Notes: generated by a model not told the origin, from the sequence alone. A DNA stretch of 64,000 bases from an uncultured Candidatus Saccharibacteria bacterium (GCA_964532495.1 CAZHJZ010000001.1:108890-172889); one strand, 5' to 3'; shown: positions 9,294 through 64,000, numbered from the stretch's first letter. Numbers and translations: made by a program.

Positions 9294-9310
9294 CACGTTC
9301 AAATTTGTAC

Positions 9311-9622: not shown

Positions 9623-9698
9623 ATGTATGATTATCTGGTAACAACTGGATTATAGCACAGAATGTCTGCTTGGGAATAAGCAAGCAAAAGTTTTCCCC

Positions 9699-10268: not shown

Positions 10269-10394
10269 ATTCCCCAGTATAGCATCCTCATGCCTGTATG
10301 GCTGTATGGGGTAAAAAAAAGTCCCTCAGCCGAAGCCAAGGGAGTTAGGAGGGAGATACGAAAACCAAAAAATTAGAAACAAAAAAATATACTG

Positions 10395-10927: not shown

Positions 10928-11617
10928 ATGTCAGATCAGACACTTATCGAGGCCCTCTTTAAAGCGGGTTCTCACTACGGATATTCAAAGACTCGTCGTC
11001 ATCCGTCGACAGCAAAGTTCGTATACACTACCAAGAACAAGGTGGACATTATCGATATCGAGCACACAGCAATGCAGCTCGAAGCAGCGACAAATTTCGT
11101 CAAGGAATTGTCAGCTAAAGGCAAAACAGTCCTCTTCGTAGGCGTTAAGCCAGAAGCAAAAGAATCAGTCAAAGCTGGCGCAGAAAAGATCGCTCAGCCA
11201 TTCATCGTTGAACGATGGGTTGGTGGAGTTCTCACTAACTGGCCAGAAATCAAGAAGCGAATCGCTCGCCTCGTTGATCTCAAAGCTAAAAAAGAAGCTG
11301 GCGAACTCGACAAGTACACCAAAAAGGAACGCCTCCTCATCGACGAAGAGATCGCAAAGATGCACAAGCTCTTTTCAGGTCTCGTTGAAATGAAAGGCAA
11401 GCCTGACGCAGTATTCGTCATCGACCCAAAGCGCGAGCACATTGCAGTTACCGAAGCTCACAAGTTGGGAGTTCCAGTTATCGCTCTTGCGAACACTGAC
11501 ACGAACATCAAGGGCATTGAATACCCTATCGTCGGAAATGACGGATCAGTATCAAGCATTGCATACATCGTTGAAACGATCGTTGCAGCATACCGAAGCG
11601 GCGTTTCAAACGGATAA
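10928..11617 (+). CDS. rpsB: 30S ribosomal protein S2
   Basis: HYGYSKTRRHPS, WVGGVLTNW, and an overall S2 profile. Confidence 0.9.
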   Translation: MSDQTLIEALFKAGSHYGYSKTRRHPSTAKFVYTTKNKVDIIDIEHTAMQLEAATNFVKELSAKGKTVLFVGVKPEAKESVKAGAEKIAQPFIVERWVGGVLTNWPEIKKRIARLVDLKAKKEAGELDKYTKKERLLIDEEIAKMHKLFSGLVEMKGKPDAVFVIDPKREHIAVTEAHKLGVPVIALANTDTNIKGIEYPIVGNDGSVSSIAYIVETIVAAYRSGVSNG

Positions 11618-11678
11618 GTGCGCGTAGCGGTCCGAGTGCGTTTATCAAGTAGTTCTTTTTAACTCACACCTTACATAT

Positions 11679-12455
11679 ATGGCAATCACAACAGAACAAA
11701 TCAAGGAATTGCGAGACCAGACAGGCGTCTCAGTCATGCAGTGCAAAAAAGCATTGGAAGAGGCTGACGGCGACATGGAAAAGGCGCTCATGATCCTCAA
11801 AAAGAAATCAAGCGAAATCGCAGCCAAGAAATCTGACCGCGAAGTATCTGAAGGAGTTATCACTGTTGAACGAAACGGCAACAAAGCAGTTGTCGTCGAA
11901 GTTCTCTGCGAAACTGACTTCGTTGCAAAAAACGAAGACTTCACTAACCTCGCAAAAGCTCTCGCTCAGAAAGCTTCAAACGACGGTATCGAAGCTATGC
12001 AGCAGGCTGCTCCAGACATGATCTCTCCTGTCGTCCAGAAGGTTGGTGAAAACATCCAGCTCGGAAAGGCATTTGAAATCACTGGCGACGTTCTCGGATC
12101 ATACATTCACGACGGTAAAAGCGGCGCTATCGTTTCCCTCAAAGGAGGCGACGAAGCTCTCGCAAAGGACATTGCAATGCAGATCACTGCTATGCGTCCT
12201 GAATACACAAAGCGTGAAGACATTCCAGCTGACATGATCGAAAAGGCAAAAGACTTGTTCAAAGAAGAAGTTGAAAACTCAGGAAAGCCAGAAGACATCA
12301 AAGCAAAGATGCTCGAAGGAAAAGTGAACGCCTACTTCAAGGACCTTACACTCATGGACCAGCCATTCTTCAAGAATCCTGATCTCACGATCGCAAAGCT
12401 CCTCGAACAAGGAAAAGCTACTCTTGATAACTACACTCGCGTAAGCATTAAGTAA
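11679..12455 (+). CDS. tsf: elongation factor Ts
   Basis: N-terminal UBA-like segment IKELRDQTGVSVMQCKKALEEADGDMEKAL. Conserved synteny after rpsB. Confidence 0.9.
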   Translation: MAITTEQIKELRDQTGVSVMQCKKALEEADGDMEKALMILKKKSSEIAAKKSDREVSEGVITVERNGNKAVVVEVLCETDFVAKNEDFTNLAKALAQKASNDGIEAMQQAAPDMISPVVQKVGENIQLGKAFEITGDVLGSYIHDGKSGAIVSLKGGDEALAKDIAMQITAMRPEYTKREDIPADMIEKAKDLFKEEVENSGKPEDIKAKMLEGKVNAYFKDLTLMDQPFFKNPDLTIAKLLEQGKATLDNYTRVSIK

Positions 12456-46982: not shown

Positions 46983-47888
46983 TTAGCGCTTTCCAGTAAT
47001 GATAGGAATAGCCTTGGCGATCAATGCCGTCACACTATCATACATGTGGAGGGTTGTCACCTCTTTCAATGAGAACCATTTGCAGTCATCAAGGCCGCCT
47101 GAGGTTGACTCAAGTTTGACTGGAACGTACGAAGACTCGCCCAAATAAAAGATCACCTGCTTGCGGATCTTACCTTTTTGAGGATGCGATGCGACGTATT
47201 CATCGTCGCCAAGCTTTTCGACAATCTTCATGTCGAGGCTCATTTCTTCTTTGATCTCTCGGATCGCAGCTTGCTCCGGTGTTTCTCCTTCTTCAACGCT
47301 TCCTTTTGAAAGTGTCCAGTAGCCGAACACATCATGCACCATGGCAAGGTAAATCTCGCCCTTATCTATGGCGTATACGACTGCGCCCGCCTTGCTTTCA
47401 ATCGGGAGCTTGGTGATGTCCACGGGCTCATCTTTCATCTGTCGTTTTGACTTCTGGTCTTTGCCTGGTTCGCCAAGTTCTTTGTACACCGCACCCAATA
47501 CGCCGTTCACAAATCGTGACGAGCTGTCTGAGCCGAATGTTTTCGCAAGTTCGATCGCTTCATTAATAGAAACTTTTGGAGGAACTTCGTTGTGATCGCC
47601 AAACAAAAGCTCAGCAAGTCCCATGCGAAGAATATTTCGATCAACTGCATTGATCTTGTCGATCGGCCATTCTGGAGCAGCCTTTGCAACAATTTCATCA
47701 ATAAGATCCTTTTTGCGAATAACGTTCATAGTGAGCGTTGTCATAAACGGCAAGTCTTCGAGACCTGGAGCGAACTCTTCTGAGTTGCGCTTCAAAATAC
47801 CCTCGACATCGCTGTCTGGCTTACCTTTAAAATCCCACTCGAAGAGGGTTTGGAGAATCACTGAACGTGAAAGATGACGATTTGCCAT
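46983..47888 (-). CDS. nusB: NusB antitermination factor fused to a C-terminal NUDIX hydrolase domain
   Basis: NusB fold over residues 1-140 (ILQTLFEWDF, LRMGLAELLF). Nudix box GSVEEGETPEQAAIREIKEEMSL in the C-terminal 140 aa. Confidence 0.8.
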   Translation of the reverse strand: MANRHLSRSVILQTLFEWDFKGKPDSDVEGILKRNSEEFAPGLEDLPFMTTLTMNVIRKKDLIDEIVAKAAPEWPIDKINAVDRNILRMGLAELLFGDHNEVPPKVSINEAIELAKTFGSDSSSRFVNGVLGAVYKELGEPGKDQKSKRQMKDEPVDITKLPIESKAGAVVYAIDKGEIYLAMVHDVFGYWTLSKGSVEEGETPEQAAIREIKEEMSLDMKIVEKLGDDEYVASHPQKGKIRKQVIFYLGESSYVPVKLESTSGGLDDCKWFSLKEVTTLHMYDSVTALIAKAIPIITGKR

Positions 47889-48281: not shown

Positions 48282-48923
48282 CTACCCTTTAGCCAAGACG
48301 CTCGTGAGAAATGACTTGCGGTGGTATGGAGTGATACCATGTTTTTTGATGGCCTTGTAATGCTCAGCCGTGCCGTAGCCTTTGTGATTCTCGAAACCAT
48401 ATTCAGGGTGGACATCGGACAGTTCTTCCATCATCTGGTCGCGGAGTACTTTTGCAGCAATTGAAGCAAGAGCAATCACCGGCTCCTTTTCGTCTCCTTT
48501 GATGATCGTTTCTTGATGCGGATATTCTTCCGGCGCATGCAATCCACCGTCGAGCAGAATATGCACATGCTGCGGATCAGCCTGCAGTCTTGCCAAAGCC
48601 TCGACTAAAGCACACTGAATAGCATTTGAAATGCCGACAACATCTATGTCTTCCGCAGAAACATACGCAACAGCATATTCAAGAATGCCTTTTTCGCGCC
48701 ATTCTTCAATCTGCTCGAACCATTGTTCTCTTTTTTGAGGAGAAAGTTTTTTGGAATCTTTGATATGAGCTGGAGGGTCAGTTTCCCTATCCTTCCAGAT
48801 AAGTGCGCAAACTGCCACAGGACCGGCGATCGGGCCTCTGCCGACTTCGTCGATGCCTATTAAAAATTTTGGCGTTTGGCGTATTAACACTCCACTAAGT
48901 ATATCAAACATTTGGAACTGCAA
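48282..48923 (-). CDS. rnhB: ribonuclease HII
   Basis: GIDEVGRGPIAGPVAVCA active-site motif. Confidence 0.9.
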   Translation of the reverse strand: MQFQMFDILSGVLIRQTPKFLIGIDEVGRGPIAGPVAVCALIWKDRETDPPAHIKDSKKLSPQKREQWFEQIEEWREKGILEYAVAYVSAEDIDVVGISNAIQCALVEALARLQADPQHVHILLDGGLHAPEEYPHQETIIKGDEKEPVIALASIAAKVLRDQMMEELSDVHPEYGFENHKGYGTAEHYKAIKKHGITPYHRKSFLTSVLAKG

Positions 48924-48999: not shown

Positions 49000-49617
49000 T
49001 TAAAGATCGGTAAACATGTCTTTTGTTTTTAGATTGTGCCGGATATATTGAATGGCGTCTTCTAAATACGGGCGGTGGTTCTTAAATAATGTGAAGCACA
49101 AATTGTGCTCAAGCCAGAATGGCTCGCTGGTTTCGCCTCCCTTTGGTGCTTTGGTGATCAACTCACCACTCCATTCCGTAACAACACACCCGAATTTGGT
49201 GTGGTCCTCATTCATACGTTTAGGATCCTGAGGAGAGGTTGGCCGCGTTGCTTCAGAAAGGTAAATCACTTCGGTTGGAGTTAGGCCAGTTAAAAACTTC
49301 ATTTTGCGATCAAGAGTTTGAGCAATAGTCTCATGTTCCTCTCCTGAACCTGCAGTAAGTCTTGTTGTAGTGCCATGCGTCTCATCGGTGTGTCTCACCA
49401 ATAACACTTGGGTTTGCTTAGTTTCGATATTGAATTGAATAACTGCCGCTATCACAGCGTGAGTTAAGTCACCTTCAATTGATAGGCGTTTCAAATCAAT
49501 AGTAGTAATACCATGCTTGTTATTCCTGCTCATGTTTTTCCCTTTGGGAACCCAATGTTCATGAATATTCTTGTCTTTGGTATCGTTTTTGAGTACGTTA
49601 ATGTGTTTATTTGCCAC
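49000..49617 (-). CDS. hypothetical protein, possibly a degenerate Nudix-like fold
   Basis: Segment AGSGEEHETIAQTLDRKMKFLTGL loosely resembles a Nudix box. Weak. Confidence 0.35.
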   Translation of the reverse strand: MANKHINVLKNDTKDKNIHEHWVPKGKNMSRNNKHGITTIDLKRLSIEGDLTHAVIAAVIQFNIETKQTQVLLVRHTDETHGTTTRLTAGSGEEHETIAQTLDRKMKFLTGLTPTEVIYLSEATRPTSPQDPKRMNEDHTKFGCVVTEWSGELITKAPKGGETSEPFWLEHNLCFTLFKNHRPYLEDAIQYIRHNLKTKDMFTDL

Positions 49618-53105: not shown

Positions 53106-53708
53106 TTATTTCTTTGTTCTTGTTTTGCGTTTATTTACCATCCAGGCTTCTGCTTCTGCTAAAGAAGTGAATGGGGCCGCCGGGCGTTCATCATCGTCTC
53201 CAGAAGTGTCTATTGGCGAAGCGGAAGAATACAGGGTGCGGTTGCTCTCAGTATTATTGGTTACGATGTGAAAAAAGGGATCTTCAGCTCTGCGTATTTC
53301 TACGTTATTTACATACAACATTCCTTTATGCGAAATGGCGAAAAGTGTATTTCCTTTCGATATGCGAATGATTCTATATTCATCGCTGTAATTTCTGCTT
53401 TCTGGCAATGAAGAATTAACCATTTCGAGGCATTCTTGTATTTCTCGTACATTGAGCGTTCTTAGGGAAGCTTGAGCTGCCACAGTCGCGATTGCTCCTG
53501 TTGAAGTGATACAACCTTTGCTGGTATCAAATGTAGTAATTTTACCATTGGAAGCGTAGAAGTAACCGATAAAACTTTGATCTAGTTCAGCAAAAAAATG
53601 AATTTTTACCATGTTTTCTTTATCAGTTTTATACACATTGGCAATGTGAACAAGAAGAGGTGAATATTCCATTTGGTCTGTATTTAAGTTAACGAATACC
53701 GAACTCAC
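53106..53708 (-). CDS. hypothetical protein (200 aa)
   Basis: ORF with its own terminator. No motifs recognised. Confidence 0.45.
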   Translation of the reverse strand: MSSVFVNLNTDQMEYSPLLVHIANVYKTDKENMVKIHFFAELDQSFIGYFYASNGKITTFDTSKGCITSTGAIATVAAQASLRTLNVREIQECLEMVNSSLPESRNYSDEYRIIRISKGNTLFAISHKGMLYVNNVEIRRAEDPFFHIVTNNTESNRTLYSSASPIDTSGDDDERPAAPFTSLAEAEAWMVNKRKTRTKK

Positions 53709-53871
53709 GACGAGGTCATGCCCTTGGTATTCGCTACCTTTGTTTTAAGGAATATGTCAGTTCACTATATAATAAAAACGGGATATGTCAATGTTATATT
53801 AATTAGATAATTTTAAATTGCGTAAAAAATTACCTTTAAAAACAGCACATTACATGCTAGTATAGAATTCT

Positions 53872-55614
53872 ATGAATCCAGAAGAACTATCAAAAGTCCG
53901 CCATACATTGGCACACTTACTCGCCCAATCAGTACAGGCTCACTACCCTGCTGTACAGCTCACGCTTGGGCCTGCAGTCGATAACGGCTTCTACTACGAT
54001 ATGGATTTTGGTACCGAAAAAATCGGCGACTCTGATCTCGGCAAAATCCAGACAACAATGCGAAAGAATCTTTCGAAGTGGGTTGCTTTCACGCACCGTG
54101 AAGTCACCAAAGATGAAGCGCTCGCTCTCTTTGCTGGTAACCCATACAAGACCGAACTCATAAACGAAATTGCAGACCGCGGAGAAAAGATCACTCTTTA
54201 CTCTTGTGGAGGATTTGAAGACTTGTGCCGCGGAGGACATGCAGAAAATCCGGGCAAAGAAATTTCAGCGGACTCATTCAAGCTTGACCGCGTAGCCGGC
54301 GCATACTGGCGCGGAGACGAGAAGAATCCAATGTTGACTCGTATTTACGGATTGGCCTTTGAATCAAAAGATGCGCTCGATGCGTACATCGCTCAACAAG
54401 AAGAAGCGAAGAAGCGCGACCACCGAAAGCTCGGAAAAGAAATGGGCTTGTTCGTTTTCTCCGATCTCGTCGGTCCTGGACTTCCCCTCTGGACTCCAAA
54501 AGGAACTTTCATTCGTGAGGCATTGAATGACTATGTATGGTCACTTCGAAAGAAAAAGGGCTATCAAAAAGTCACTATCCCTCACATCACTAAAAAAGAA
54601 CTCTACGAAACTTCAGGCCACTGGGCGAAGTACGCTGACGATTTGTTCAAGATCCACACTCGCGAGGATCATCTCTTTGCGATGAAGCCAATGAACTGCC
54701 CGCATCACACGCAGATCTTCGACAGCGAACCTAGAAGCTACCGAGACATGCCACAGCGATATGCTGAGACAACGATGGTGTACCGTGACGAACAGTCTGG
54801 GGAACTCTCTGGACTCTCACGCGTGATCTCAATTACTCAGGATGATGCGCACGTATTCTGCCGAGAAAATCAGATCGAGGTTGAAGCAATGGCTATCTGG
54901 GACATCATTGAAACATTTTACGGAACATTCGGATTTGATTTGAAAGTCCGCTTCTCTCGCCACGATCCTTCACAGATGGAAAAATATTTGGGCGGACCAG
55001 AAGTCTGGGCGAAAGCAGAAGGTGCGCTTGAAAACCTTATGAAATCAAAAGGCGTGACTTGGATGGACGGTCTCGGCGAAGCAGCATTCTATGGACCAAA
55101 GATCGACTTCATCGCGCATGACTCTATTGGCCGAGTACTTCAAGTTGCGACAATCCAGCTCGACTTCAACCAGCCAAAGAACTTCGGGCTTGTATGTACT
55201 AACGAGAAAGGAGAAAAAGAACAGATCGTCATGATCCACGCAGCGATTATGGGATCAATCGAACGATTCATGTCCACAATGATCGAACACCTCGCTGGAA
55301 ACTTCCCAACATGGCTCTCTCCTACTCAAGTTACCATCGTTCCTATCCGTGAAGAACATGGAGCATTCGCGCAGAAGTTAAACGACATGTTATTGGAAAA
55401 TGATATCCGCGTGAAGTTGGATGCCGGAAAAGACTCTATGGGCAAGCGTATTCGTGAATCAAAGACACAACGCATTCCATATACGATCGTTATCGGAGAT
55501 CAAGAATCAGCAAGCGGTATTCTCACTATTGAAACTCGAGGTGGTGAAAAACTTCAGATAAGTGGTGATGAATTTCTCGCTAAGGTAATCGAAGAAGTTA
55601 AGACCAAAGCGTAA
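53872..55614 (+). CDS. thrS: threonyl-tRNA synthetase, lacking the N-terminal TGS domain
   Basis: Editing-domain HxxxH (VRHTLAHLL). Class II motifs RDHRKLG and KPMNCPHH. C-terminal anticodon-binding domain. Confidence 0.93.
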   Translation: MNPEELSKVRHTLAHLLAQSVQAHYPAVQLTLGPAVDNGFYYDMDFGTEKIGDSDLGKIQTTMRKNLSKWVAFTHREVTKDEALALFAGNPYKTELINEIADRGEKITLYSCGGFEDLCRGGHAENPGKEISADSFKLDRVAGAYWRGDEKNPMLTRIYGLAFESKDALDAYIAQQEEAKKRDHRKLGKEMGLFVFSDLVGPGLPLWTPKGTFIREALNDYVWSLRKKKGYQKVTIPHITKKELYETSGHWAKYADDLFKIHTREDHLFAMKPMNCPHHTQIFDSEPRSYRDMPQRYAETTMVYRDEQSGELSGLSRVISITQDDAHVFCRENQIEVEAMAIWDIIETFYGTFGFDLKVRFSRHDPSQMEKYLGGPEVWAKAEGALENLMKSKGVTWMDGLGEAAFYGPKIDFIAHDSIGRVLQVATIQLDFNQPKNFGLVCTNEKGEKEQIVMIHAAIMGSIERFMSTMIEHLAGNFPTWLSPTQVTIVPIREEHGAFAQKLNDMLLENDIRVKLDAGKDSMGKRIRESKTQRIPYTIVIGDQESASGILTIETRGGEKLQISGDEFLAKVIEEVKTKA

Positions 55615-55622
55615 TACCTCAT

Positions 55623-55656
55623 AAAAGAGCGGCGCCTTCGGCGCCGCTCTTTTATA
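55623..55656. terminator. strong bidirectional terminator
   Basis: aaaagagcggcgcc ttcg gcgccgctctttt. Confidence 0.8.
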
Positions 55657-55659: not shown

Positions 55660-56124
55660 TTACAGATATTTTATTTCTTTCCCTAATTCTTTAATTAAAT
55701 TATGCTCCCATTTTGCACCAGTGGAACTTTCCCAATTCGGTAAGAAATAAAATGTCTTCACCTTGTCATTCTTCATCAGCGGCAAATAAAAATCATCTAA
55801 GATACTAAAGGCATATTCGCCCGGTTTTAAATCCTTCTTGAGACCTTGCATCGGTTTTTCAAATGGCATTTGATCAAACACATGAATGCCTTCTGCTTGA
55901 AGTTTTTTGATCTGAGCATTGAAAGCTAGCATATTCGCCTCAAGAGATCCTAAGCCTCCAGTAGCGATTGGCCCGCAGACTTGAACGATATCCTCTGGCA
56001 TGCGTGACAAGACCCGTTCAGCTACTGCATACATTTCTTTGGCCGTAACAGCATGGTCAAGATCCTGCCAATCCTGCTCTGTCCAAAACGAATCTGTGAT
56101 TGTGTTGTTATTTTTTGTAAACAT
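55660..56124 (-). CDS. DUF4406-like (nucleoside 2-deoxyribosyltransferase-like fold) protein, tentative
   Basis: VCGPIATGG...SLEANM pattern resembles the N-terminal glycine-rich loop of the NDT-like DUF4406 family. Confidence 0.4.
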   Translation of the reverse strand: MFTKNNNTITDSFWTEQDWQDLDHAVTAKEMYAVAERVLSRMPEDIVQVCGPIATGGLGSLEANMLAFNAQIKKLQAEGIHVFDQMPFEKPMQGLKKDLKPGEYAFSILDDFYLPLMKNDKVKTFYFLPNWESSTGAKWEHNLIKELGKEIKYL

Positions 56125-56127
56125 AGA

Positions 56128-56571
56128 TTATTTATTTTCGTAATAATATTTGAGACACTTATCTTCTTCTACCATAAGCTTTGTTTCAAACGCTTCCTTT
56201 TCTGTTACCCAGGCAAATGCTATATGTTCTGTAGGATTTATTTTAACTTCAGGTAGCACCTCAAATCTAATCCTGTAATTATAAAATTTGAAGTTCTTAT
56301 TTAATGGTTCGTTTACTACATAGAATGTAGTAATATATTCAAATTTTTCTGGAGGTATTTGAATACCTGTTTCTTCAAAAAGTTCTCTTGACATGGCGCT
56401 TTTTTTATCAATATCGTTACTATCAACTTTACCGCTTGGTCTACCAAATGCTAGGCCTTCAGGCTTGTCTGGATGGCGCTGAAGCTGCAAAATCTTTCCA
56501 TCACATTCAACAAAGCAGCCAACTACTTCAATGGAATTTTCAAATGATTCGGGTTGCTGGAGGTAAAACAT
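56128..56571 (-). CDS. NUDIX hydrolase
   Basis: GKVDSNDIDKKSAMSRELFEETGI Nudix box with the first Glu replaced by Asp. Confidence 0.7.
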   Translation of the reverse strand: MFYLQQPESFENSIEVVGCFVECDGKILQLQRHPDKPEGLAFGRPSGKVDSNDIDKKSAMSRELFEETGIQIPPEKFEYITTFYVVNEPLNKNFKFYNYRIRFEVLPEVKINPTEHIAFAWVTEKEAFETKLMVEEDKCLKYYYENK

Positions 56572-56573
56572 AC

Positions 56574-57278
56574 TTATTTCTCATTTATTACGTAACATAT
56601 TTTTTCAATAATTTGTTTCATTTCAGAAGCGTGTCCATCAAGCCAAGGCAATAAAGGATGTGTAGCATTAGGTATCGTAATAATTTCTCTCGACTTTGCA
56701 TTTTGTGCTGAATTAAATGTTCTTTCAATTACTTCTTCTGGAATAACATCATCTGATTCAGCCTTAACAACAAGAAGATTGCCTGTATATTTCTCAAGAA
56801 TTTTCCAAGCATCGCTTTCAATCCAACTACCCGGTTTTCGTATGATACTGCTGAAGTCGGGTCCAAAAAGTACTTCATATGCTCGAGCATCATAGACAGC
56901 TGGTGCCAACAATATGAGATTTTCGATTTGAAACATTTCAGTAAGCTTGATTGCAACATAGCCACTCATACTAGATGCCAGTATTGAAAGCGGCTGTGTT
57001 ATTTTTTGATTTTCGATTACTATAGTAGCTTCCTTAACTCTTTGATGAAGCGAAGAAGCTGACATTTCTCCGCCAGTCTCTCCATGTCCACTAAAATCAA
57101 ACGAAAACGAGCTAATACTTTTTTCTAGCAACAATCCTCGTAATATATTAAATTGACTCCGCCCTGTTGCCCCCCCGCCATGCAAACAAACAACAGTATT
57201 CTTTGTTGTAGAGTCGGACATATAGTCACCTTGTAATTGGACAGTATTTTCTTGGACTGGAATTGAAAATTTTAGCAT
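56574..57278 (-). CDS. alpha/beta hydrolase
   Basis: HGGGATGRS. Nucleophile elbow ASSMSGY. Confidence 0.6.
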   Translation of the reverse strand: MLKFSIPVQENTVQLQGDYMSDSTTKNTVVCLHGGGATGRSQFNILRGLLLEKSISSFSFDFSGHGETGGEMSASSLHQRVKEATIVIENQKITQPLSILASSMSGYVAIKLTEMFQIENLILLAPAVYDARAYEVLFGPDFSSIIRKPGSWIESDAWKILEKYTGNLLVVKAESDDVIPEEVIERTFNSAQNAKSREIITIPNATHPLLPWLDGHASEMKQIIEKICYVINEK

Positions 57279-57280
57279 AA

Positions 57281-58153
57281 TTAATTAGTTAAAAAATTTA
57301 CAAGTGATCGTGCGGTCTCTCGAATACTATTATTATCTACTGCGTTCTCACCTTCAGAGGTGTTCATTCTACGAAAATTATGAGCAACTCCTTTTATTAT
57401 TGTCACTTTTATATTACCTCCGGACTGAGATAATTCTTCTGAGAAATTCTTATAGTAATCTTGTATATGCTTAGGAATCGGAGGATCATCATTTTCAAAA
57501 AAACTAATCGCTACCGAACCACCATGTAATACAAAGTTTTTCAATTTTTCAAAAATGGGAGATTCAGCAACATTCCATGATGCATGGATAGTATTTTTAA
57601 ATTCTTCTCCATATGGCATATTCTGGATTTCTTTTGGATATGCTGCTGGAGAAATCAATACAAGTTTTGAAACTGCGATACCTTGGGATTGTAGCCGCTC
57701 CGCAGCACCCACTGCCATATATGCGCCAGCACTAGTCCCAACAAGTTGTACATTAGAAGATTGTAATTCTTTGGAAAAATGCTCTGTCACTTGAACTAGG
57801 GTATCGGTTCGAGACTCCATGCTTTCTATGTCCCAATTTCCCGACGAGCCTCCAGTACCTGGCTGGTTATATAAAACCGCTGATTTTTTATGCTCCAACA
57901 TTTTGAGAGCCAGATGTCCGTATAATTTATTTATAAGTGGCAACTTCCCTCTACGCTCCTTATCTCGAGGAATTCCACCAACCATTGTAATTACAGCCTC
58001 TTGTGGTTGACCTACCGTAACAGCACAACGTATTTCATTTCCGTTAATTGGTATTACTTTTGTTTCAAACTTACCAAACTTTAGCCACTCATCCTCTGAT
58101 TGTGGTAAATAGTCAGGATTATTAAATTTATTTCCAAGATTCGGGTGTTCCAT
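57281..58153 (-). CDS. alpha/beta hydrolase (esterase/lipase-like)
   Basis: GxSxG as GTSAG. Catalytic His VAHNF. Confidence 0.65.
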   Translation of the reverse strand: MEHPNLGNKFNNPDYLPQSEDEWLKFGKFETKVIPINGNEIRCAVTVGQPQEAVITMVGGIPRDKERRGKLPLINKLYGHLALKMLEHKKSAVLYNQPGTGGSSGNWDIESMESRTDTLVQVTEHFSKELQSSNVQLVGTSAGAYMAVGAAERLQSQGIAVSKLVLISPAAYPKEIQNMPYGEEFKNTIHASWNVAESPIFEKLKNFVLHGGSVAISFFENDDPPIPKHIQDYYKNFSEELSQSGGNIKVTIIKGVAHNFRRMNTSEGENAVDNNSIRETARSLVNFLTN

Positions 58154-58205
58154 ATAGAAATAATATCAAATTCATAATTAATTCTGGCCTTTGCAAGCCA
58201 TAATT

Positions 58206-58754
58206 TTATACCTTAAGCTTACTAATCAAATCTCTTACAGCATTTCCTCTATGCGAAAACTTATTTTTTTCTTCCGGAGTAAATTCAAGCATCGGCCGGT
58301 CAGTTCCGTCTACTTGGATGAAAAGATCAAATTCACATGCGCCAGGGTCAACTGGCTTTGGTTTTACAACAACGCCTTCAATAGAGCCTAGACCCATCAC
58401 TGGTTCTTTCTGCCCATCATAAACTCCAAGACGGCAGACAAGCATGATCCTTGATCCAATGAATTTCATTCCCATCTCGTACGGATTAAAACATTCAAGA
58501 AAATCCTTGATATAAGGGCCTGGGAAGCCTTTTAGGGCTTCAAAGTGAAGCGAGGTATCATCTACGAGCACCGGTTCTTTGAACTGCTCATAAGCATATT
58601 GAAGTTTGTGTTTAATTATTTCCTCCGGCTTCCCTTGAATCTCAAAATAACCAGGAAGCACTTTCTGCTCGCAATCAAAAAACTCGCCGAGCGCCAGCGA
58701 AAGCTCTCTAAATTTGAGAGAATTCCCTGTAACGATAGCGAGTTTTTGTTTCAT
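58206..58754 (-). CDS. non-canonical purine NTP pyrophosphatase (Ham1/RdgB/ITPase family)
   Basis: IVTGNSLKFRE, EIQGKPEE, PVLVDDTSLHFEALKGFPGPY, and the FSHRGNA terminal motif. Confidence 0.8.
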   Translation of the reverse strand: MKQKLAIVTGNSLKFRELSLALGEFFDCEQKVLPGYFEIQGKPEEIIKHKLQYAYEQFKEPVLVDDTSLHFEALKGFPGPYIKDFLECFNPYEMGMKFIGSRIMLVCRLGVYDGQKEPVMGLGSIEGVVVKPKPVDPGACEFDLFIQVDGTDRPMLEFTPEEKNKFSHRGNAVRDLISKLKV

Positions 58755-58766
58755 ATAGTTTGGGTG

Positions 58767-60863
58767 TTAGATATCCAATTCCGCCATCTTGGCATGCGTC
58801 TGGATAAATGTTTTGCGAGGAGCAACATCGGAGCCCATGAGCATGTCGAAGACTTTGTCTGCGTCAGCTGCGAGTTCAATGTTCACCTGCTTGATAACGC
58901 GTCGAGCTGGGTCCATAGTTGTTTCCCAAAGCTCTTCGGCATTCATTTCTCCCAAACCTTTATATCGCTGAATGTGGACTTTTACAGCTCGAGGCTTGCC
59001 GTCTTTCACTTCGACAACCTCCACTTCCTCGCCTTCTTCTTCACCACCTCCGTCGCGTTCTGCCTGGGCGATCATTTCATCAAGGTCAACATCTTTCTCT
59101 TGTCCAATGACAGCAACTTTTTCTTCGTCGGAATATGCGTAGAAAATTTCCTTTCCTTTTTTGATCTTGTAGAGTGGTGGCTGAGCGATATAGATAAATC
59201 CGCCATCCAAAAGTGGCTTGAAGTATCGGTACAAGAGCGTGAGGATCAATGTTCGAATGTGCGCTCCGTCCACGTCGGCATCGGTTGCGATGATAACTTT
59301 ATGATAACGAAGTTTGGAAATATCGAAGGTATCTCCGATTGCAGTTCCCAAAGCAACCACGAGGTTCTTGATCTGTTCTGAAGCAAGCATGCGGTCGAGG
59401 CGCGCTCGTTCGATGTTCAAGATCTTTCCTCGAAGCGGCAAGATAGCCTGTGTCTTTCGATCGCGGCCGGTCTTTGCAGTACCTCCCGCAGAGTCTCCTT
59501 CCACAATGAAGAGTTCAGATTCTTCGGCGCTTTTTGACTGACAGTCGGCAAGCTTACCTGGAAGCGTCATTCCTTCGAGTGCGCCTTTTCGCAAAATAGA
59601 GTCTTTAGCTGCTTTCGCTGCTTTGCGAGCTCGAACTGCGAGAATTGCTTTGTTGATGATTGATTTAGCCTGATCTGGATTTTCCTCAAGGAAAGCTGCG
59701 AAAGCATCGCCAAACACCGTTGCTACGGCACCCTGGGCCTCCATAGAGCCGAGTTTGGCCTTTGTCTGGCCTTCGAACTGAATCTCAGCAAGCTTTACTG
59801 AAATAACAGCCGTGAGACCTTCAAGTACGTCTTCACCGGTAAATCCGCCATCAGCTTCTTTGATGAGGTTGTTTTTCTTTCCGTAGGTATTGAGCAAGCG
59901 AGTAAGCGCTGTCTTGAAACCTGTAACATGCGTTCCTCCTTCTGGAGTATGGATGTTGTTAGCAAACGGAACGATTTTTGTTTCAATTTCATCCGTGTAC
60001 TGGAGAGCGATTTCAACGCCGACATTATCTAATTCCTTGTCGACATAAAAAACGGTTTCCTGAATCGCTTTCAATCCTTGGTTGTAGTATTTGACCAATG
60101 ACATCAAGCCTCCTTCGAAATAGAACGAGTATGACGGGACTTCGATGTTGAGATCGCCGAACCAGTATGCATCATCAAGTGAGAATTTTTTGTTAAAAAG
60201 AGTATCAGCGTCCATTTCTCGGGCATCGATAATGGTGAGCTTCAATCCTTTGACGAGATATGCCTGTTGTCGCATGTGGTTGACCACCGTGCTCCAGGTG
60301 AACTTTACGCCTTCTTTGAAGATTTCTGGATCTGGAGAAAATGTCGTGATCGTTCCATGCAATTTTGAAGAACCAACTTTTTTGACATTGGCTTTCTTTT
60401 TACCCTGCGAATACTCTTGCATAAAGATACCGCCATCTCGATGAACGACTACCTTCGTATAGATTGAGAGTGCGTTGACAACGGAAGCACCGACACCGTG
60501 GAGACCTCCGGACACTTTATAGCCAGATCCTTCTCCGCCGAATTTTCCACCGGCATGGAGCGTGGTCATGACCATTTCAAGCGCTGAGAGTTTTGTTTTC
60601 GGATGGATATCAGTTGGAATACCGCGGCCGTTATCTACGACGCGGATAAAGTTATCAGGAAGAAGCGTAACCTCAATGCGGTTCGCATGGCCTGCCATCG
60701 CCTCGTCGCGAGAGTTATCAAAAATTTCCCAGATCAAATGGTGAAGACCATCAGGACCAGTTGATCCGATGTACATTCCGGGACGCTTTCGAACAGGTTC
60801 AAGTCCCTCGAGCACTTGGATCTGCTCGGCACCGTATTTAGCTTTCGATTCGTCTTTGGCCAT
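58767..60863 (-). CDS. gyrB: DNA gyrase subunit B (compact, 698 aa)
   Basis: GHKL ATPase motifs (LHHLIWEIFDNSRDE, GLHGVGASVVNALS). TOPRIM EGDSAGG. C-terminal QRYKGLGEM. Confidence 0.9.
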   Translation of the reverse strand: MAKDESKAKYGAEQIQVLEGLEPVRKRPGMYIGSTGPDGLHHLIWEIFDNSRDEAMAGHANRIEVTLLPDNFIRVVDNGRGIPTDIHPKTKLSALEMVMTTLHAGGKFGGEGSGYKVSGGLHGVGASVVNALSIYTKVVVHRDGGIFMQEYSQGKKKANVKKVGSSKLHGTITTFSPDPEIFKEGVKFTWSTVVNHMRQQAYLVKGLKLTIIDAREMDADTLFNKKFSLDDAYWFGDLNIEVPSYSFYFEGGLMSLVKYYNQGLKAIQETVFYVDKELDNVGVEIALQYTDEIETKIVPFANNIHTPEGGTHVTGFKTALTRLLNTYGKKNNLIKEADGGFTGEDVLEGLTAVISVKLAEIQFEGQTKAKLGSMEAQGAVATVFGDAFAAFLEENPDQAKSIINKAILAVRARKAAKAAKDSILRKGALEGMTLPGKLADCQSKSAEESELFIVEGDSAGGTAKTGRDRKTQAILPLRGKILNIERARLDRMLASEQIKNLVVALGTAIGDTFDISKLRYHKVIIATDADVDGAHIRTLILTLLYRYFKPLLDGGFIYIAQPPLYKIKKGKEIFYAYSDEEKVAVIGQEKDVDLDEMIAQAERDGGGEEEGEEVEVVEVKDGKPRAVKVHIQRYKGLGEMNAEELWETTMDPARRVIKQVNIELAADADKVFDMLMGSDVAPRKTFIQTHAKMAELDI

Positions 60864-61175
60864 ATGTATGTGTTGATTATAAAAATAAAAAAGCGCACCA
60901 GAAATGTTGATTTGTACCTATAAAGTATAGCATGTTTTCAATACAAAAACCAGTACAAAATACCGGTTTTAAGCTTGCAAAATAAGGGTCTTTTAACTCC
61001 ATCGGAGTCTCTGAGGGGACGTCTTACGGCACATTGTTCTCGATAGGCGTATTGTTATCTACAACAATACTTTCATTTGCTACAATTTCGCCATCAGTGC
61101 CTGCATTCATGCAACACCCCACGCCACGCCATCACCAGTGTTTAGAGACACTAGCACAGTGAACATAGAAAACTA

Positions 61176-61210
61176 ATAAAAAAGCCAGTCATATTGCTAT
61201 GCTGGCTTTG
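61176..61210 (-). terminator. intrinsic terminator downstream of the T9SS-CTD gene
   Basis: aagccagtc atattgctatg ctggctt, with a T-run on the minus strand. Confidence 0.65.
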
Positions 61211-61238: not shown

Positions 61239-62930
61239 TTATTCAATTATTATCTTCTTTGCAGTACTGTTACCTGCTTTTAGGAAGTACATTCCTTTTG
61301 GCCAGTCTACTTGCATTTGTTGTTGACCGGAAGTCAGTCGAACCGGTTTCAGTTTTTTACCAACAATGTCGTATACCTCTATAATACCGATATTCCGATA
61401 ATCTTCACACGCAACAGTAAATGTTCCATTGTTTGGACTGGGATATACAGCAAAAGTAGTCTTTGCAACTGTAGCAACGCTTGTTGGCGTGGCAATAGCT
61501 GGGTATGTTTCAACTCTCAGTGTTGTTGAATCGCCGCCGAACATTTCAGCTCTTATACCTGAAAAAAATTCATATATAAGATTGTTGTATCTCAACTCCA
61601 TATCTACAGTTGTCTGAGCAGGGATTTTACCCGCTTGAATAAACTGCAATGCGCGAGTTGAAATTTGCAACTCATTATCTGAAGGATCGGGGTTAAACAC
61701 CTCAATCCTTGAATTCTGCACGATTGTATCTTCAGGTGCATGGCCTAATTGGAAAGGGTTTGTTGCAGTACTACTGATGTAAATAAACGGCATCCGCATA
61801 TCGGGGCCAATATTTACCTGTCCCGGTTGTGCCGGAATATGAGTGTGTACTGTAAACTTTTCTCTCCAAAAGTTGCAAGAACTTATTTCCCACTGATTTC
61901 CATTTACAATAAGGAAATTGAATTGGGTAAAAATGGTTAGCAGCGCCGAGTCTGGGGCGCGGGGAAACAAGTTGCGGAAAAATGGCATCATACCATCTAT
62001 CCCAAGACTATCCGTCATTTTCATGCCTTCGTAAAAATCGTGAGCTATCACTGGGTTCCCTGTGTCAATGATAAACGCTGGTGAAACAAAACTGAATGTT
62101 AGTGTTTGGCCTGGTAATAATATAATTTTACCGTCCATATCACTACTTTCAAATTGTTTTACCTCGTCATATATGATTGGATCCCTAGTAAAAAACTCAG
62201 AGTAAAATTTGTTTGTTACGTGAGATAACTCGTAACATTCGCCGTTTTCTTTTGTGTAACAATACCGGCGTGATGAATCAAGCCACTCCGAATGCTCCCG
62301 GACATCTTGTGCTGACATGTGATCTTGCGGTACACCCGGAATTGTATCTAGGTACCGCGGTTCTCCATCATCTGGATCATTCAATATAGTGTCACCGTTA
62401 AGAAACACTTCACCGACAGTATGGCCTGATAAAATCACCGTGCGAAGCGAATCCAGCGGAATCATTTGCGTCTCCTTGGTAAGATGATCGAAGAAAATCT
62501 GACGCTCTCCGCACATTTGCGAAGCATTGCTCAAGAAAAACGCACATGGAGAATACTGTTTGCGAGCAAGTAATGTATCAAATCCGTTTATGCCGTAGGT
62601 GCTTGGTGCAGGCCTTCTGCAGTGTACAGTGGAAGGACTTTTTACAATCCTGCCATATTCTCTTATATATGCCATAGGGTCGCCAGTGGCAATCATATGG
62701 TTAAGGAAAGATGGTTTATCAGCAAAAATTAAGTCACCTGGCTTATCGAACTTTGTTAACATATAGAACATTTTGGGAAATGTATCAGTGTTCGTAATCC
62801 TGACTGAAAAGCTGTCACCAGGGTTTGGAACACTAGTGCCAAAACCGTTGAATAAGTTAACAACTTGTGCATTTACAGAAATAGCAAAAAACAAAGCGGC
62901 AACTGCCAACAAAAGGTTATTTTTTTTCAT
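61239..62930 (-). CDS. secreted protein with N-terminal signal peptide and T9SS type-A C-terminal sorting domain (Por_Secre_tail-like)
   Basis: MKKNNLLLAVAALFFAISVNAQ signal. The C-terminal roughly 75 aa, FAVYPSPNNGTFTV...IIEVYDIVGKKL...GMYFLKAGNSTAKKIIIE, match the T9SS CTD consensus. Confidence 0.7.
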   Translation of the reverse strand: MKKNNLLLAVAALFFAISVNAQVVNLFNGFGTSVPNPGDSFSVRITNTDTFPKMFYMLTKFDKPGDLIFADKPSFLNHMIATGDPMAYIREYGRIVKSPSTVHCRRPAPSTYGINGFDTLLARKQYSPCAFFLSNASQMCGERQIFFDHLTKETQMIPLDSLRTVILSGHTVGEVFLNGDTILNDPDDGEPRYLDTIPGVPQDHMSAQDVREHSEWLDSSRRYCYTKENGECYELSHVTNKFYSEFFTRDPIIYDEVKQFESSDMDGKIILLPGQTLTFSFVSPAFIIDTGNPVIAHDFYEGMKMTDSLGIDGMMPFFRNLFPRAPDSALLTIFTQFNFLIVNGNQWEISSCNFWREKFTVHTHIPAQPGQVNIGPDMRMPFIYISSTATNPFQLGHAPEDTIVQNSRIEVFNPDPSDNELQISTRALQFIQAGKIPAQTTVDMELRYNNLIYEFFSGIRAEMFGGDSTTLRVETYPAIATPTSVATVAKTTFAVYPSPNNGTFTVACEDYRNIGIIEVYDIVGKKLKPVRLTSGQQQMQVDWPKGMYFLKAGNSTAKKIIIE

Positions 62931-63058: not shown

Positions 63059-64000
63059 TTAAATTTCAGAAACAGGAGCAGGGGTGGGGGTGGGGGTGGG
63101 AGGTGTCTCTGGCTGACTTTGCTCAACGGGTGGGCTTGCGGGTTCATCAGACGGAGTTTCTGCGGTTACAGTATCGTCAACCACTGGAATGACTTCTGGA
63201 TCAGGAGTAGGAGTAGGTCCTGGAGTAGGCTCTGGTGTGGGCTCTGGTGTTGGTGTTGGTGTTGGTGTTGGTGTTGGTGTTGGTGTTGGTGTTGGTGTTG
63301 AAACTTGCTGCTGTGGCAGTAATTGTTTCAATTGGTGAAGCTCGGCTCGAGTGATACATTCGTCTGGATAGCCTTCCTCTGATAAACAAACCTCTCGAGT
63401 AAATATTCGCGTGATACCGTTGCTTGCACTTCCCAACCATGTACTGATCGATGACAAGAAAGTATTGCTTGGCGTGGTGAGAGTATCCATTGATGCTACT
63501 TTCAAATTGAGTTCTTGGACTGACTTGATAAGAAGCGGGATAAATGTCTTGTAATCAACCATCATATATCCATCTGTTCGATGACCTACTGCTTCTGGAT
63601 AAAGAGGTTCGACTTGCTGAGCCAGAACCCCAGTATGCTGCTTGCCGTTATCGTTAATGATTGACTGATCATATGTAAAGTCAACAACGCGGATATCTTT
63701 CAATACGTCCAAACCATAGCCAGTATCAACTATATTCTGCTTTGTGCGCTGGTCTGAAGGAGCAGTTGTATCGATAGTGTTTGTTCCGACATAGAGCGTA
63801 GCTGCTCCGGAACCGCTGGTAGCATTGCTAATCTTATTGTTATCGCCATCAACACCAATACGGAGACCTGTAAGGAAAAAGTTTTGTGCCTCTGCATCAT
63901 TAATATATAAAGCATATTCCGCTCCTCCGGTTGCCTGGAGTGACGCACTGCTGAAGTACAAACCATAGACATCCTGAGCAGTTAGAGAAGGAATGTCTGT
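63059..64000 (-). CDS. tail-fibre-like surface protein with S74 intramolecular chaperone domain and (TP)n linker; N-terminus outside the window
   Basis: SDQRTKQNIVDTGYGLDVLKDIRVVDFTYDQ...GVLAQQVEPLYPEAV...GYMMVDYKTFIPLLIKSVQEL matches the endosialidase/tail-spike C-terminal chaperone signature. The frame stays open to the window edge upstream of the listed TTG. Confidence 0.7.
   Translation of the reverse strand, partial: TDIPSLTAQDVYGLYFSSASLQATGGAEYALYINDAEAQNFFLTGLRIGVDGDNNKISNATSGSGAATLYVGTNTIDTTAPSDQRTKQNIVDTGYGLDVLKDIRVVDFTYDQSIINDNGKQHTGVLAQQVEPLYPEAVGHRTDGYMMVDYKTFIPLLIKSVQELNLKVASMDTLTTPSNTFLSSISTWLGSASNGITRIFTREVCLSEEGYPDECITRAELHQLKQLLPQQQVSTPTPTPTPTPTPTPTPTPEPTPEPTPGPTPTPDPEVIPVVDDTVTAETPSDEPASPPVEQSQPETPPTPTPTPAPVSEI
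63081..63100 (+). repeat. G-quadruplex-type motif GGGGTGGGGGTGGGGGTGGG
   Basis: Read directly. Encodes PPTPTP on the opposite strand. Confidence 0.6.
63245..63300. repeat. (TGGTGT)n hexanucleotide microsatellite, about 9 units, encoding (TP)n on the minus strand
   Basis: Read directly. Confidence 0.9.

Follow-up and report, generated by a model that had tools for sequence, protein, structure and literature searches.

Introduction

In the human nucleotide sanitation route, DCTPP1, a MazG-like dCTP pyrophosphatase, is accompanied by DNPH1 (Rcl), a 2'-deoxynucleoside 5'-phosphate N-hydrolase. Bacterial house-cleaning enzymes include those of the RdgB/Ham1 and MutT/NudG types, and we know of no description of a clustering of RdgB/Ham1, MutT/NudG or MazG enzymes behind gyrB. 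Among the nucleoside 2-deoxyribosyltransferases (NDTs), the nucleoside-specific enzymes carry an Asp at the position before the catalytic motif. In DNPH1, the catalytic E104 and the phosphate-binding S98 are spaced by six residues (PMC10603095). The function of a further protein to be considered here, PA1492 (structure 1t1j), is itself not assigned (PMC2238974, PMC7308715).

The locus under study belongs to a genome of the Paceibacteria (CPR/Patescibacteria), a lineage of tiny genomes, and consists of gyrB followed by genes for a Ham1 protein, two alpha/beta hydrolases (here named ABH1 and ABH2), a Nudix hydrolase and a DUF4406-like protein. Coordinates are counted from the first letter of the window, i.e. 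the whole stretch of 64,000 nt, and L-numbers are labels of related-genome loci. The tail of genes behind gyrB is probably a mosaic of small hydrolase genes, composed of three independent modules that came to lie in the slot between gyrB and thrS, of which only the Nudix and DUF4406 genes would constitute a real functional unit. Ham1 would represent the first of these modules, ABH1-ABH2 the second and Nudix plus DUF4406 the third.

Results

Gene content and transcription

All six ORFs were found on the minus strand in the head-to-tail order gyrB, Ham1, ABH1, ABH2, Nudix and DUF4406-like, with intergenic gaps of 12, 52, 2, 2 and 3 nt, just as an earlier sequence-only reading had described them. 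Profile searches of each ORF placed every domain call above the Pfam gathering threshold and thereby bore out the gene identities proposed in that reading (gyrB also by NCBIfam). Many homologs were obtained for every protein of the cluster, which identifies all of them as products of genuine genes rather than of ORFs arisen by chance. The anchor of the locus is the conserved core gene gyrB (58767..60863, minus strand), encoding the 698-aa DNA gyrase subunit B, which satisfies the NCBIfam model for the gyrase B subfamily (PRK05644) with 913 bits and contains the Pfam domains DNA_gyraseB, Toprim, HATPase_c and DNA_gyraseB_C.

On its upstream side the gyrB transcription unit is bounded by an intrinsic terminator at 61177..61209 (minus strand), which ends the preceding gene of a Por_Secre_tail protein (61239-62930); its hairpin, AAAGCCAGC...GACTGGCTTT, has a T-run behind it and a folding energy of -16.9 kcal/mol (z = -3.8). 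Downstream of it, the candidate gyrB promoter, an extended -10 element (TGcTATACT; 60924..60932, minus strand), ends 61 nt before the gyrB ATG and is unchanged in the window, L002, L083 and L170, while the flanking intergenic DNA is only 59% conserved. Strict matches to TGnTAT[AT][AC]T occur only twice on the minus strand in 5.7 kb (expected 0.8 +/- 0.9), the other being TGaTATTAT (58160..58168, minus strand). This candidate internal promoter falls in one of only two real intergenic spaces, the 52-nt gap between Ham1 and ABH1, and ends 7 nt before the ABH1 ATG, a distance that would suit a leaderless transcript. No significant hairpin is present in this 52-nt gap (z = -0.88); a terminator-like hairpin is located within the Ham1 coding region (58701-58683), and such matches occur at chance frequency.

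The strong terminator that had been placed at the end of the cluster was confirmed by folding on both strands. This hairpin (AAAAGAGCGGCGCC-TTCG-GGCGCCGCTCTTTT; 55621..55656), whose 16-bp arms form a perfect inverted repeat around a 3-nt spacer, has a folding energy of -31.8 kcal/mol (z = -6.9) on the minus strand and of -28.7 kcal/mol (z = -7.4) on the plus strand, and none of 200 shuffled sequences was as stable; a simple terminator scan did not pick it up. Because U-tracts are present on either side, it is considered a bidirectional intrinsic terminator, common to the gyrB-side unit and the convergent thrS gene, and it is 92% conserved relative to L002, where it remains attached to thrS.

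Transcription would most likely start at the conserved extended -10 promoter approximately 61 nt upstream of gyrB and, as no convincing internal terminator was detected, may read through all five downstream genes before stopping at the bidirectional hairpin that also serves thrS, with a second promoter ahead of ABH1 being possible. The tight gaps and the lack of a convincing internal terminator are in favour of co-transcription of the whole cluster, as proposed in the sequence-only reading, yet the candidate promoter in front of ABH1 and the hairpin in Ham1 imply that the genes from gyrB to DUF4406 may not form a single operon.

The slot between gyrB and thrS

The slot is closed by the conserved convergent flank thrS (53872..55614, plus strand; threonyl-tRNA synthetase, 580 aa). 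The convergent gyrB-thrS pair is found in 63 of 80 related genomes and is the only stable frame in this region, the intervening distance ranging from 7 nt to 7.5 kb. Slot contents are very heterogeneous among these 63 loci, including Trp-repressor-like, PaaX_M, sortase, IS200-like transposase, CNNM/CBS, Peptidase_S74, 23S rRNA IVP and other genes, and the recurrent families among the 91 slot ORFs were DUF4406 (7), NUDIX (4), Ham1 (3), UDG (3) and Maf (1). Any given house-cleaning gene was seen in just 5-13% of the gyrB loci. The GC3 of the core genes is 0.47-0.49 (0.47 for gyrB), against 0.26 for ABH1 and 0.25 for ABH2.

The five-gene neighbourhood, which had been read as one operon, is not conserved among the 80 gyrB loci: all five genes follow gyrB in no other genome, ABH1 and ABH2 occur in none of the 80, and only subsets of Ham1, Nudix and DUF4406 recur behind gyrB in relatives. 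Even the closest relative, L002 (GyrB 95%, ThrS 96% identical), lacks Ham1 and both hydrolases, in place of which it has an unrelated 361-aa ORF; it retains Nudix and DUF4406 with 71% nucleotide identity to the window, and similarity between the two loci breaks exactly at gene boundaries. L152 (GyrB 92%) and L170 (GyrB 88%) have the arrangement gyrB-(x)-Ham1-Nudix-DUF4406 with the ABH pair missing, and the order Ham1-Nudix-DUF4406 behind gyrB is accordingly shared by three genomes, including that of the window.

DUF4406 homologs follow gyrB, typically at a spacing of 12-27 nt, in 11 of 12 cases at an identity of at least 50%, in 6 of 12 at 45-50% and in 0 of 30 below 45%. Their identity to the window protein is 71, 63 and 68% at GyrB identities of 95, 93 and 88%, respectively, and approximately 47-57% where GyrB identity is approximately 70-76%. 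The linkage of the hydrolase genes to gyrB is positional and specific to one clade. Nothing connects gyrase chemistry to the enzymes of the tail; in this clade the hydrolase genes would simply be transcribed along with an essential gene, with no mechanistic tie to gyrase.

Ham1 and the ABH1-ABH2 cassette

The 182-aa product of the gene at 58206..58754 (minus strand) is a Ham1/RdgB-family non-canonical purine NTP pyrophosphatase, which matches Ham1p_like (PF01725) with 100.8 bits (cut-off 22.5; 1.2e-28) over residues 6-177, corresponding to profile positions 2-184 of 186. It remains below the NCBIfam equivalog cut-offs (79.1 vs 203 bits for NF011396 and 76.8 vs 145 for TIGR00042). The motifs TGNxxK, EIQG, DDT/VS, FPGPY and SHRG are intact, and the window protein shares the catalytic and substrate-binding motifs TGNxxK, DD[TS], FPGPY and SHR with seven slot orthologs. 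Homologs of 67-71% identity are likewise situated within the gyrB-thrS slot. Ham1 would be a pyrophosphatase of the dITP/XTP type, and within this clade its gene is encountered repeatedly behind gyrB.

ABH1 (57281..58153, minus strand; 290 aa) is an alpha/beta-fold serine hydrolase and ABH2 (56574..57278, minus strand; 234 aa) an alpha/beta-fold hydrolase and distant paralog of ABH1, both matching Pfam Hydrolase_4 above threshold (34.2 and 50.3 bits, respectively; 2.6e-13 for ABH2). The ABH1 family is Patescibacteria-wide (115 matches, best non-self 62%), and S141 (in GTSAG), D222 and H258 are invariant in 33 members. The AF2 model of ABH1 has a pLDDT of 92.8 and in fold comes closest to feruloyl/cinnamoyl esterases, lipases and thioesterases. 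ABH2 is 50-54% identical to the gene directly 3' of the ABH1 homologs in L087 and L088; its relatives in the PDB are cinnamoyl/chlorogenic esterases, and a putative triad, assigned by eye only, comprises the ASSMS elbow, the Asp in SDDV and the His in ATHP. ABH1 and ABH2 are a conserved, esterase-like two-gene cassette that elsewhere resides in unrelated neighbourhoods and that was inserted behind gyrB only in the window genome, possibly together with its own promoter. A role of the pair in nucleotide house-cleaning gained no support, given this esterase-like character and the absence of a demonstrable nucleotide connection.

The Nudix and DUF4406 proteins

The Nudix hydrolase (56128..56571, minus strand; 147 aa) is NudG/MutT-like and matches NUDIX (PF00293) with 44.4 bits (cut-off 21.1; 2.1e-11). 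NudG is its best NCBIfam match, although below the equivalog cut-off (41.1 vs 156 bits), and its best PDB match is the E. coli CTP pyrophosphohydrolase 2rrk (E = 1.7e-5, residues 13-82 only). The core REUxEExGU of the Nudix box is intact (RELFEETGI), whereas the first half of the box in the window clade deviates from the consensus GX5EX7REUXEEXGU by an E-to-D exchange and one extra residue; the box is fully canonical in more distant slot Nudix proteins and in fused ones. The protein is probably a (d)NTP pyrophosphohydrolase that forms the first half of a Nudix-DUF4406 unit.

The 154-aa DUF4406-like protein (55660..56124, minus strand), a member of the N-(deoxy)ribosyltransferase superfamily, withstood the HMM search on which its assignment hinged, matching DUF4406 (PF14359) with 34.7 bits (cut-off 22) over residues 59-153, and precomputed PF14359 matches exist for most of its homologs. 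A flavodoxin-like NDT fold (Pfam clan CL0498, NDT/DNPH1 superfamily) was found, the best structural matches being 1t1j, NDTs and MilB and not TIR. S134, G136 and E140 of an S-x-G-x-x-x-E motif are invariant in 56 DUF4406 sequences and kept in seven of seven fusions (see below). As this motif has the same spacing as S98 and E104 of DNPH1 and the fold agrees, we infer that E140 would be the counterpart of the NDT/DNPH1 nucleophile; Gln48 seems to occupy the place of the catalytic Tyr in the NDT/DNPH1 triad. A comparison of the DUF4406 family profile with human DNPH1 by hhalign gave no significant homology (probability 0.5%), with only the CGPIxTGG/CGSIRGG loop aligning (the DNPH1 query was verified against ten residue numbers in PMC10603095), and no match to PF05014 (NDT) was obtained even at E = 0.1. 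The DUF4406 protein is probably a nucleotide or nucleoside N-glycosidase and the second half of the unit.

NUDIX is the commonest neighbour family of DUF4406. The two ORFs overlap in L002 and L083, and in the latter (GyrB 93%) the same position is occupied by a non-orthologous Nudix of 30% identity. Away from gyrB, the two genes adjoin each other, in both orders, in L118, L121, L122, L126, L137 and L157. The pairing is facultative, since a Nudix adjoins the DUF4406-subfamily gene in approximately 10 of 80 loci and most lack one. Seven independent fusion proteins include the DUF4406 subfamily, five with Nudix and two with MazG, a pyrophosphatase unrelated to Nudix, each type occurring in both orders. 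All catalytic motifs are kept in these fusions, each of which stands alone in its 90% cluster, and one was confirmed as a continuous ORF in DNA. The window Nudix aligns over its full length with the Nudix halves of the five fusions, which belong to its own subfamily and not to that of the other two Nudix proteins of the window. These fusions argue for functional coupling and suggest that Nudix and DUF4406 form a real functional unit.

Discussion

The joining of Nudix and DUF4406 in one protein in other organisms would suggest that the two enzymes probably constitute a two-step route by which faulty DNA or RNA building blocks are destroyed, the most likely function being conversion of a non-canonical (d)NTP to the (d)NMP and then to base and sugar phosphate. 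In such a route, the NudG/MutT-like Nudix would hydrolyse the non-canonical (d)NTP to (d)NMP and PPi, and the DUF4406 enzyme would then cut the N-glycosidic bond of the monophosphate, through the invariant Glu of its S-x-G-x-x-x-E motif, to yield base and (deoxy)ribose 5-phosphate, so that the aberrant nucleotide could not be re-phosphorylated. Fusion to NTP pyrophosphohydrolases lends indirect support to DUF4406 as a putative DNPH1/Rcl-type (d)NMP N-glycosidase. Where deaminated purines are concerned, Ham1 may follow this logic as well. The idea of a nucleotide house-cleaning theme finds support in Ham1, Nudix and DUF4406, which recur in order and of which the last two are coupled by fusion, and none in the unrelated ABH pair.

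It could also be argued that a permissive landing site simply arises where two essential genes converge with their 3' ends, so that small genes insert there without damage to promoters, and that five genes without any cooperation accumulated neutrally, inheritance plus chance then accounting for the nucleotide theme as well as for the linkage to gyrB. The heterogeneity of the slot, the scarcity of each house-cleaning gene, the clearly independent arrival of the ABH pair and the low GC3 of the tail genes, as is seen for accessory genes, all agree with this explanation. However, a permissive site cannot account for Nudix and MazG fusions to DUF4406 in both orders, and the Nudix-DUF4406 adjacency away from gyrB, the non-orthologous Nudix at the same position in L083 and the gene order kept in three genomes also oppose it, for which reasons we regard purely neutral accumulation as unlikely.

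With respect to substrate, many members of the Nudix superfamily act as pyrophosphatases on ADP-ribose or NADH, and an NDT/TIR-like DUF4406 protein might split nicotinamide from ribose in NAD(P) or NMN in the manner of ADP-ribosyl cyclases and TIR domains, with the Nudix then hydrolysing ADP-ribose or else first cutting NAD to NMN and AMP. This is rather improbable: the best structural matches of DUF4406 are not to TIR, the Nudix is nearest to NudG/MutT-type NTPases and, its sequence being read by eye, is missing the proline that, 15-16 residues beyond the Nudix box, typifies ADP-ribose pyrophosphatases, and NTP substrates are favoured by the fusions to MazG, for which, as an NTP pyrophosphohydrolase, we know of no NAD or ADP-ribose activity. 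Slimmer still are the prospects of a phage-defence or counter-defence module, or a mobile-element or prophage remnant, whose Nudix and NDT-like proteins deplete or modify nucleotides during infection, a context raised by the sequence-only reading that gained no support here. The Nudix does match the PADLOC candidate PDC-S07 (1.6e-11), mycobacteriophages and Escherichia phage D6 encode DUF4406 proteins (30-32% identity), DUF4406 matches PHROGs families, Peptidase_S74 and IS200-like genes are found in the gyrB-thrS slot of relatives, and GC3 is low. Yet the PADLOC match is a generic, single-gene one with the other four proteins unmatched, the window's slot contains no sensor, effector, integrase, transposase or flanking repeats, the genes sit between core housekeeping genes with DUF4406 identity falling broadly with that of GyrB, and Ham1 is a canonical housekeeping enzyme.

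Compared with the bacterial house-cleaning enzymes RdgB/Ham1 and MutT/NudG, the window Ham1 and Nudix are ordinary superfamily members with intact catalytic motifs, for the Nudix the core of its box, albeit scoring below the equivalog cut-offs of NCBIfam. The proposed Nudix-DUF4406 route resembles that of DCTPP1 and DNPH1, with a Nudix and not a MazG as the partner in the window. The DUF4406 protein differs from DNPH1 in having Gln48 where the latter has Tyr24 and in its extra three-helix N-terminal extension (residues 1-45), and its closest structure is that of the PA1492/1t1j family rather than DNPH1. Identity to PA1492 is only approximately 15%, and members of the Patescibacteria subfamily have, in addition, the N-terminal helices and a CGPIxTGGxGS loop. 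With NDT (PF05014) and the CMP N-glycosidases MilB and BlsM it has in common the flavodoxin-like fold and a motif, putatively of the catalytic-Glu type, at the beginning of the helix that comes behind the final core strand, while, unlike in nucleoside-specific NDTs, the residue preceding the motif is not Asp but Ser, as in 5'-phosphate-binding enzymes.

Results

Organisation of the gyrB-linked genes

Six genes lie head-to-tail on the minus strand in the ORF list of the window: gyrB (58767-60863) is separated by 12 nt from Ham1 (58206-58754), which is followed after 52 nt by the first alpha/beta hydrolase gene, ABH1 (57281-58153), after 2 nt by the second, ABH2 (56574-57278), after another 2 nt by Nudix (56128-56571) and after 3 nt by the DUF4406-like gene (55660-56124), which ends at a terminator. 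All domain calls passed the curated Pfam thresholds, including that of DUF4406, the least certain assignment in the sequence-only reading (34.7 bits against 22). The identity of gyrB was upheld by NCBIfam, Ham1 and Nudix scoring under the equivalog cut-offs. The terminator, at 55621-55656, is a perfect inverted repeat of 16 bp whose folding energies on the two strands are -31.8 and -28.7 kcal/mol (z about -7), and its A/U tracts on both sides identify it as a bidirectional terminator common to the tail genes and the convergent thrS (53872-55614, plus strand). The ORF list, Pfam and hairpin folding confirmed the gene order, gaps, domains and terminator of the original description. Third-position GC content (GC3) separates the core genes gyrB, thrS and dnaE (0.47-0.49) from Ham1 (0.38), DUF4406 (0.39) and ABH1, ABH2 and Nudix (0.25-0.26).

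Upstream of gyrB, an extended -10 element (TGcTATACT, 60932-60924, minus strand) is invariant in four genomes amid divergent DNA. In 5.7 kb of this strand there is just one other strict match, which falls in the 52-nt Ham1-ABH1 gap and stops 7 nt short of the ABH1 ATG; folding of this gap returned no significant hairpin. The most likely mode of transcription would be read-through from gyrB with a possible internal promoter. Consensus scans for sigma-70 promoters and terminators were discarded as evidence, as their counts were at chance level and the real terminator at 55621-55656 was missed. A terminator-like hairpin is present within the Ham1 coding region at 58683-58701 (minus strand), approximately 55 nt past the Ham1 start and followed by TTTTTTGATT. 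It might act as an attenuator of gyrB read-through; the overall scan count was that expected by chance. In none of ten genes examined (gyrB, thrS, dnaE and others; upstream stretches e.g. 60864-60893 and 53842-53871) does a Shine-Dalgarno-like motif lie 20 nt or less from the start, which makes this motif uninformative as evidence for translation starts, and the lineage seems to initiate translation independently of it. The sole Rfam match in the window is a tRNA-Thr distant from the locus. An identical contig is present in run SRR12404947.

Several further genes, in the window and in other loci, were also recorded. A NusB-Nudix fusion protein (46983-47888, minus strand; NusB 1-136, NUDIX 172-279) shares its architecture with a 306-aa protein of locus L084, an unusual joining of an antitermination factor to a Nudix hydrolase. 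A third Nudix gene (205 aa) is located directly upstream of RNase HII (49000-49617 and 48282-48923, both minus strand), so that three Nudix genes occur within 11 kb of a small genome. In locus L087 a leucyl-tRNA synthetase of 942 aa (7757-10585) has, by precomputed Pfam matches, tRNA-synt_1 segments separated by an inserted NUDIX domain. Between dnaE and thrS lies an ORF of 200 aa that starts with GTG and has no Pfam match (53106-53708, minus strand). The type IX secretion system (T9SS) is considered characteristic of Bacteroidota; a 563-aa protein with its C-terminal sorting domain (Por_Secre_tail) is encoded at 61239-62930 (minus strand) in this Patescibacteria genome, is conserved at 53% in the closest relative, L002 (2729-4399), and has a counterpart in the same place in L082. 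Proteins with Peptidase_S74, the intramolecular chaperone of endosialidases and tail fibres, also recur (window 63059-63961, minus strand; L002 8712-10853, within the gyrB-thrS interval; L170 1-1406), the window copy containing a long (Thr-Pro)n repeat at approximately 63200-63300.

Variability of the gyrB-thrS interval

A GyrB search returned 80 loci from genomes that all belong to Patescibacteria (with labels such as Paceibacterota and Nomurabacteria); L002, at 95% identity, is the best match. When the window proteins were compared with these loci by tblastn, the convergent arrangement of gyrB and thrS proved to be the conserved feature (63 of the 80), the intervening space ranging from 7 nt to 7.5 kb (3,152 nt in the window). 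Its contents are heterogeneous: among 91 ORFs annotated with Pfam, the commonest families are DUF4406 (7), Trp_repressor-like (5) and NUDIX (4), followed by UDG (3, on the thrS strand), Ham1 (3), PaaX_M (3) and sortase (3); one Maf is also present. An IS200-like Y1 transposase-domain family of approximately 230 aa occupies the interval in three genomes (L014 3745-4428, L017 11759-12451 and L024 12640-13332) and is a possible agent of this variability. In L172 a HAD_2-type hydrolase (4387-5004), which may be a nucleotidase adding to the nucleotide theme, lies between gyrB and Ham1, overlapping the latter by 4 nt.

DNA similarity between the window and L002 breaks exactly at gene boundaries. Nucleotide identity is 84.6% in gyrB, 70.7% across Nudix and DUF4406 and 85.4% across the terminator and thrS; in place of Ham1, ABH1 and ABH2 (58765-56573) L002 has an unrelated 361-aa ORF, and its 713-aa Peptidase_S74 gene is without a counterpart in the gyrB-thrS interval of the window. 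Other relatives differ again, with gyrB-Ham1-Nudix-DUF4406 in L152 (GyrB 92%), gyrB-Nudix-DUF4406 with overlapping ORFs before the convergent thrS in L083 (GyrB 93%), gyrB-orf465-Ham1-Nudix-DUF4406-PaaX_M before convergent thrS and dnaE in L170 (GyrB 88%), and a single gene between gyrB and Ham1 in L171 and L172. Identities to the window are discordant within loci (Nudix 30% against GyrB 93% in L083; Ham1 48% against GyrB 92% in L152; ThrRS 63% against GyrB 88% in L170), which suggests cassette replacement or recombination in the interval. The gyrB-thrS junction may itself be a recombination seam: GyrB and ThrRS identities are weakly correlated (rho 0.20, p 0.10, 67 loci), but GyrB identities are compressed, so that this divergence is suggestive rather than proof.

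The sequence-only reading had suggested that gyrB and the genes after it could form a nucleotide-pool sanitation or salvage module. The 80-genome comparison, together with the L002 breakpoints, rules out a conserved five-gene operon; the gene cluster is instead a mosaic, specific to its lineage, that occupies a variable slot. Membership of the hydrolases in a nucleotide pathway was likewise rejected, since they form an independent pair elsewhere, have carboxylesterase-like folds and occur in no related gyrB slot (neither was found by tblastn in any of the 80 loci). The ABH1 family is Patescibacteria-wide (115 matches, best non-self 62%), and in L087 and L088 its homolog is directly followed by an ABH2 ortholog (50-54% identity) with overlapping stop and start, in neighbourhoods that are unrelated (one with YchF/LeuRS, one with Tag/peptidase M3). 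Its Ser-Asp-His triad is invariant, and its confident model (pLDDT 92.8) has feruloyl/cinnamoyl esterases, lipases and thioesterases as fold neighbours; ABH1-ABH2 is an independent esterase-like cassette outside any nucleotide pathway. Insertion of this pair by a mobile element leaving scars was rejected, as neither direct nor inverted repeats of any significance were seen on either side of it. The phage-defence context once raised for NDT-like and Nudix domains was also set aside: the sole PADLOC match was a generic one to Nudix, PHROGs and phage tblastn searches revealed only that distant DUF4406 proteins occur in phages, and nothing further supported defence.

The DUF4406 protein and its partners

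Close homologs of the DUF4406 protein number 85, all about 150 aa, the few named sources being labelled Parcubacteria or Patescibacteria; a profile search yielded 965 clusters at 50% identity. The alignment contains the invariant motifs QVCGPIxTGGxGS, FDQMPFE and WxxSxGAxWE, and AF2 gives a confident model (pLDDT 91.8). In human DNPH1, a (d)NMP N-hydrolase, the nucleophile E104 lies six residues from the phosphate-binding S98 (PMC10603095), a spacing equal to that of S134 and E140 here. A direct sequence link was rejected, the alignment of the DUF4406 profile with DNPH1 (hhalign) being not significant, and PDB searches with the single sequence and the family profile found, weakly, the uncharacterised PA1492 structure 1t1j alone; we therefore infer E140 and S134 as putative active-site residues from fold and motif. 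In L017 the gene is split between two reading frames (11249-11694; residues 10-56 and 56-154), as a pseudogene or through sequencing error.

Among 80 metagenome loci retrieved with the DUF4406 profile, gyrB is directly upstream of 11 of 12 homologs with at least 50% identity to the window protein (mostly 12-27 nt away), 6 of 12 at 45-50% and none of 30 below 45%, and linkage to gyrB is hence clade-specific. The window-type Nudix adjoins DUF4406 in approximately 10 of the 80 loci, on either side of it and at sites unlinked to gyrB as well; NUDIX is the commonest neighbour family of homologs lacking gyrB linkage. When 20 long profile matches were scanned against Pfam, five Nudix-DUF4406 fusions (Nudix N-terminal in four, C-terminal in one) and two MazG-DUF4406 fusions (one per order) were identified, all seven retaining both catalytic motif sets; one, P0329, is a continuous 303-aa ORF in L126. 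Over its full length the window Nudix aligns to the Nudix halves of the fusions (E 1e-14 to 1e-24), an alignment not obtained with the window's two other Nudix proteins. A further protein, P0349 (299 aa), has a membrane VKOR (vitamin K epoxide reductase) domain fused N-terminally to DUF4406, a partner unlike Nudix or MazG.

Discussion

That this DUF4406 subfamily is fused, in either orientation, to two NTP pyrophosphohydrolases not homologous to each other is strong evidence that it acts in the same pathway as such an enzyme, and the simplest reading is that it would act on the NMP product. The original interpretation is partly supported. The Nudix-DUF4406 unit is the one functionally meaningful and novel element of the cluster, with Ham1 as a recurrent companion. 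The unit is probably a pyrophosphohydrolase/N-glycosidase pair disposing of non-canonical nucleotides: the Nudix enzyme would hydrolyse non-canonical (d)NTPs to monophosphates, from which the putative DUF4406 N-glycosidase would release the free base and (deoxy)ribose 5-phosphate. A literature search turned up no functional work on DUF4406 and no account of Nudix or MazG paired with NDT-like proteins.

The linkage to gyrB itself and the two esterase-like genes hold little broader interest, and the locus illustrates how, in reduced genomes, accessory genes become shuffled in between essential genes that converge on one another. Patescibacteria (CPR) are generally thought incapable of de novo nucleotide synthesis and dependent on imported nucleotides. 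If they do rely on import, keeping the pool clean is a practical question, and the proposed route, if true, would sanitise the imported pool and recycle the sugar phosphate in these salvage-dependent cells; through this locus a family almost without literature gains a concrete, testable function. We tentatively propose, at somewhat below even chances, that the Patescibacteria-centred DUF4406 subfamily supplies the missing second enzyme in a bacterial route of nucleotide disposal or salvage that has two steps, the first catalysed by Nudix or MazG, and has not been described before. Such a route would be the prokaryotic analogue of the human pair formed by DCTPP1, a MazG-like dCTP pyrophosphatase, and DNPH1.
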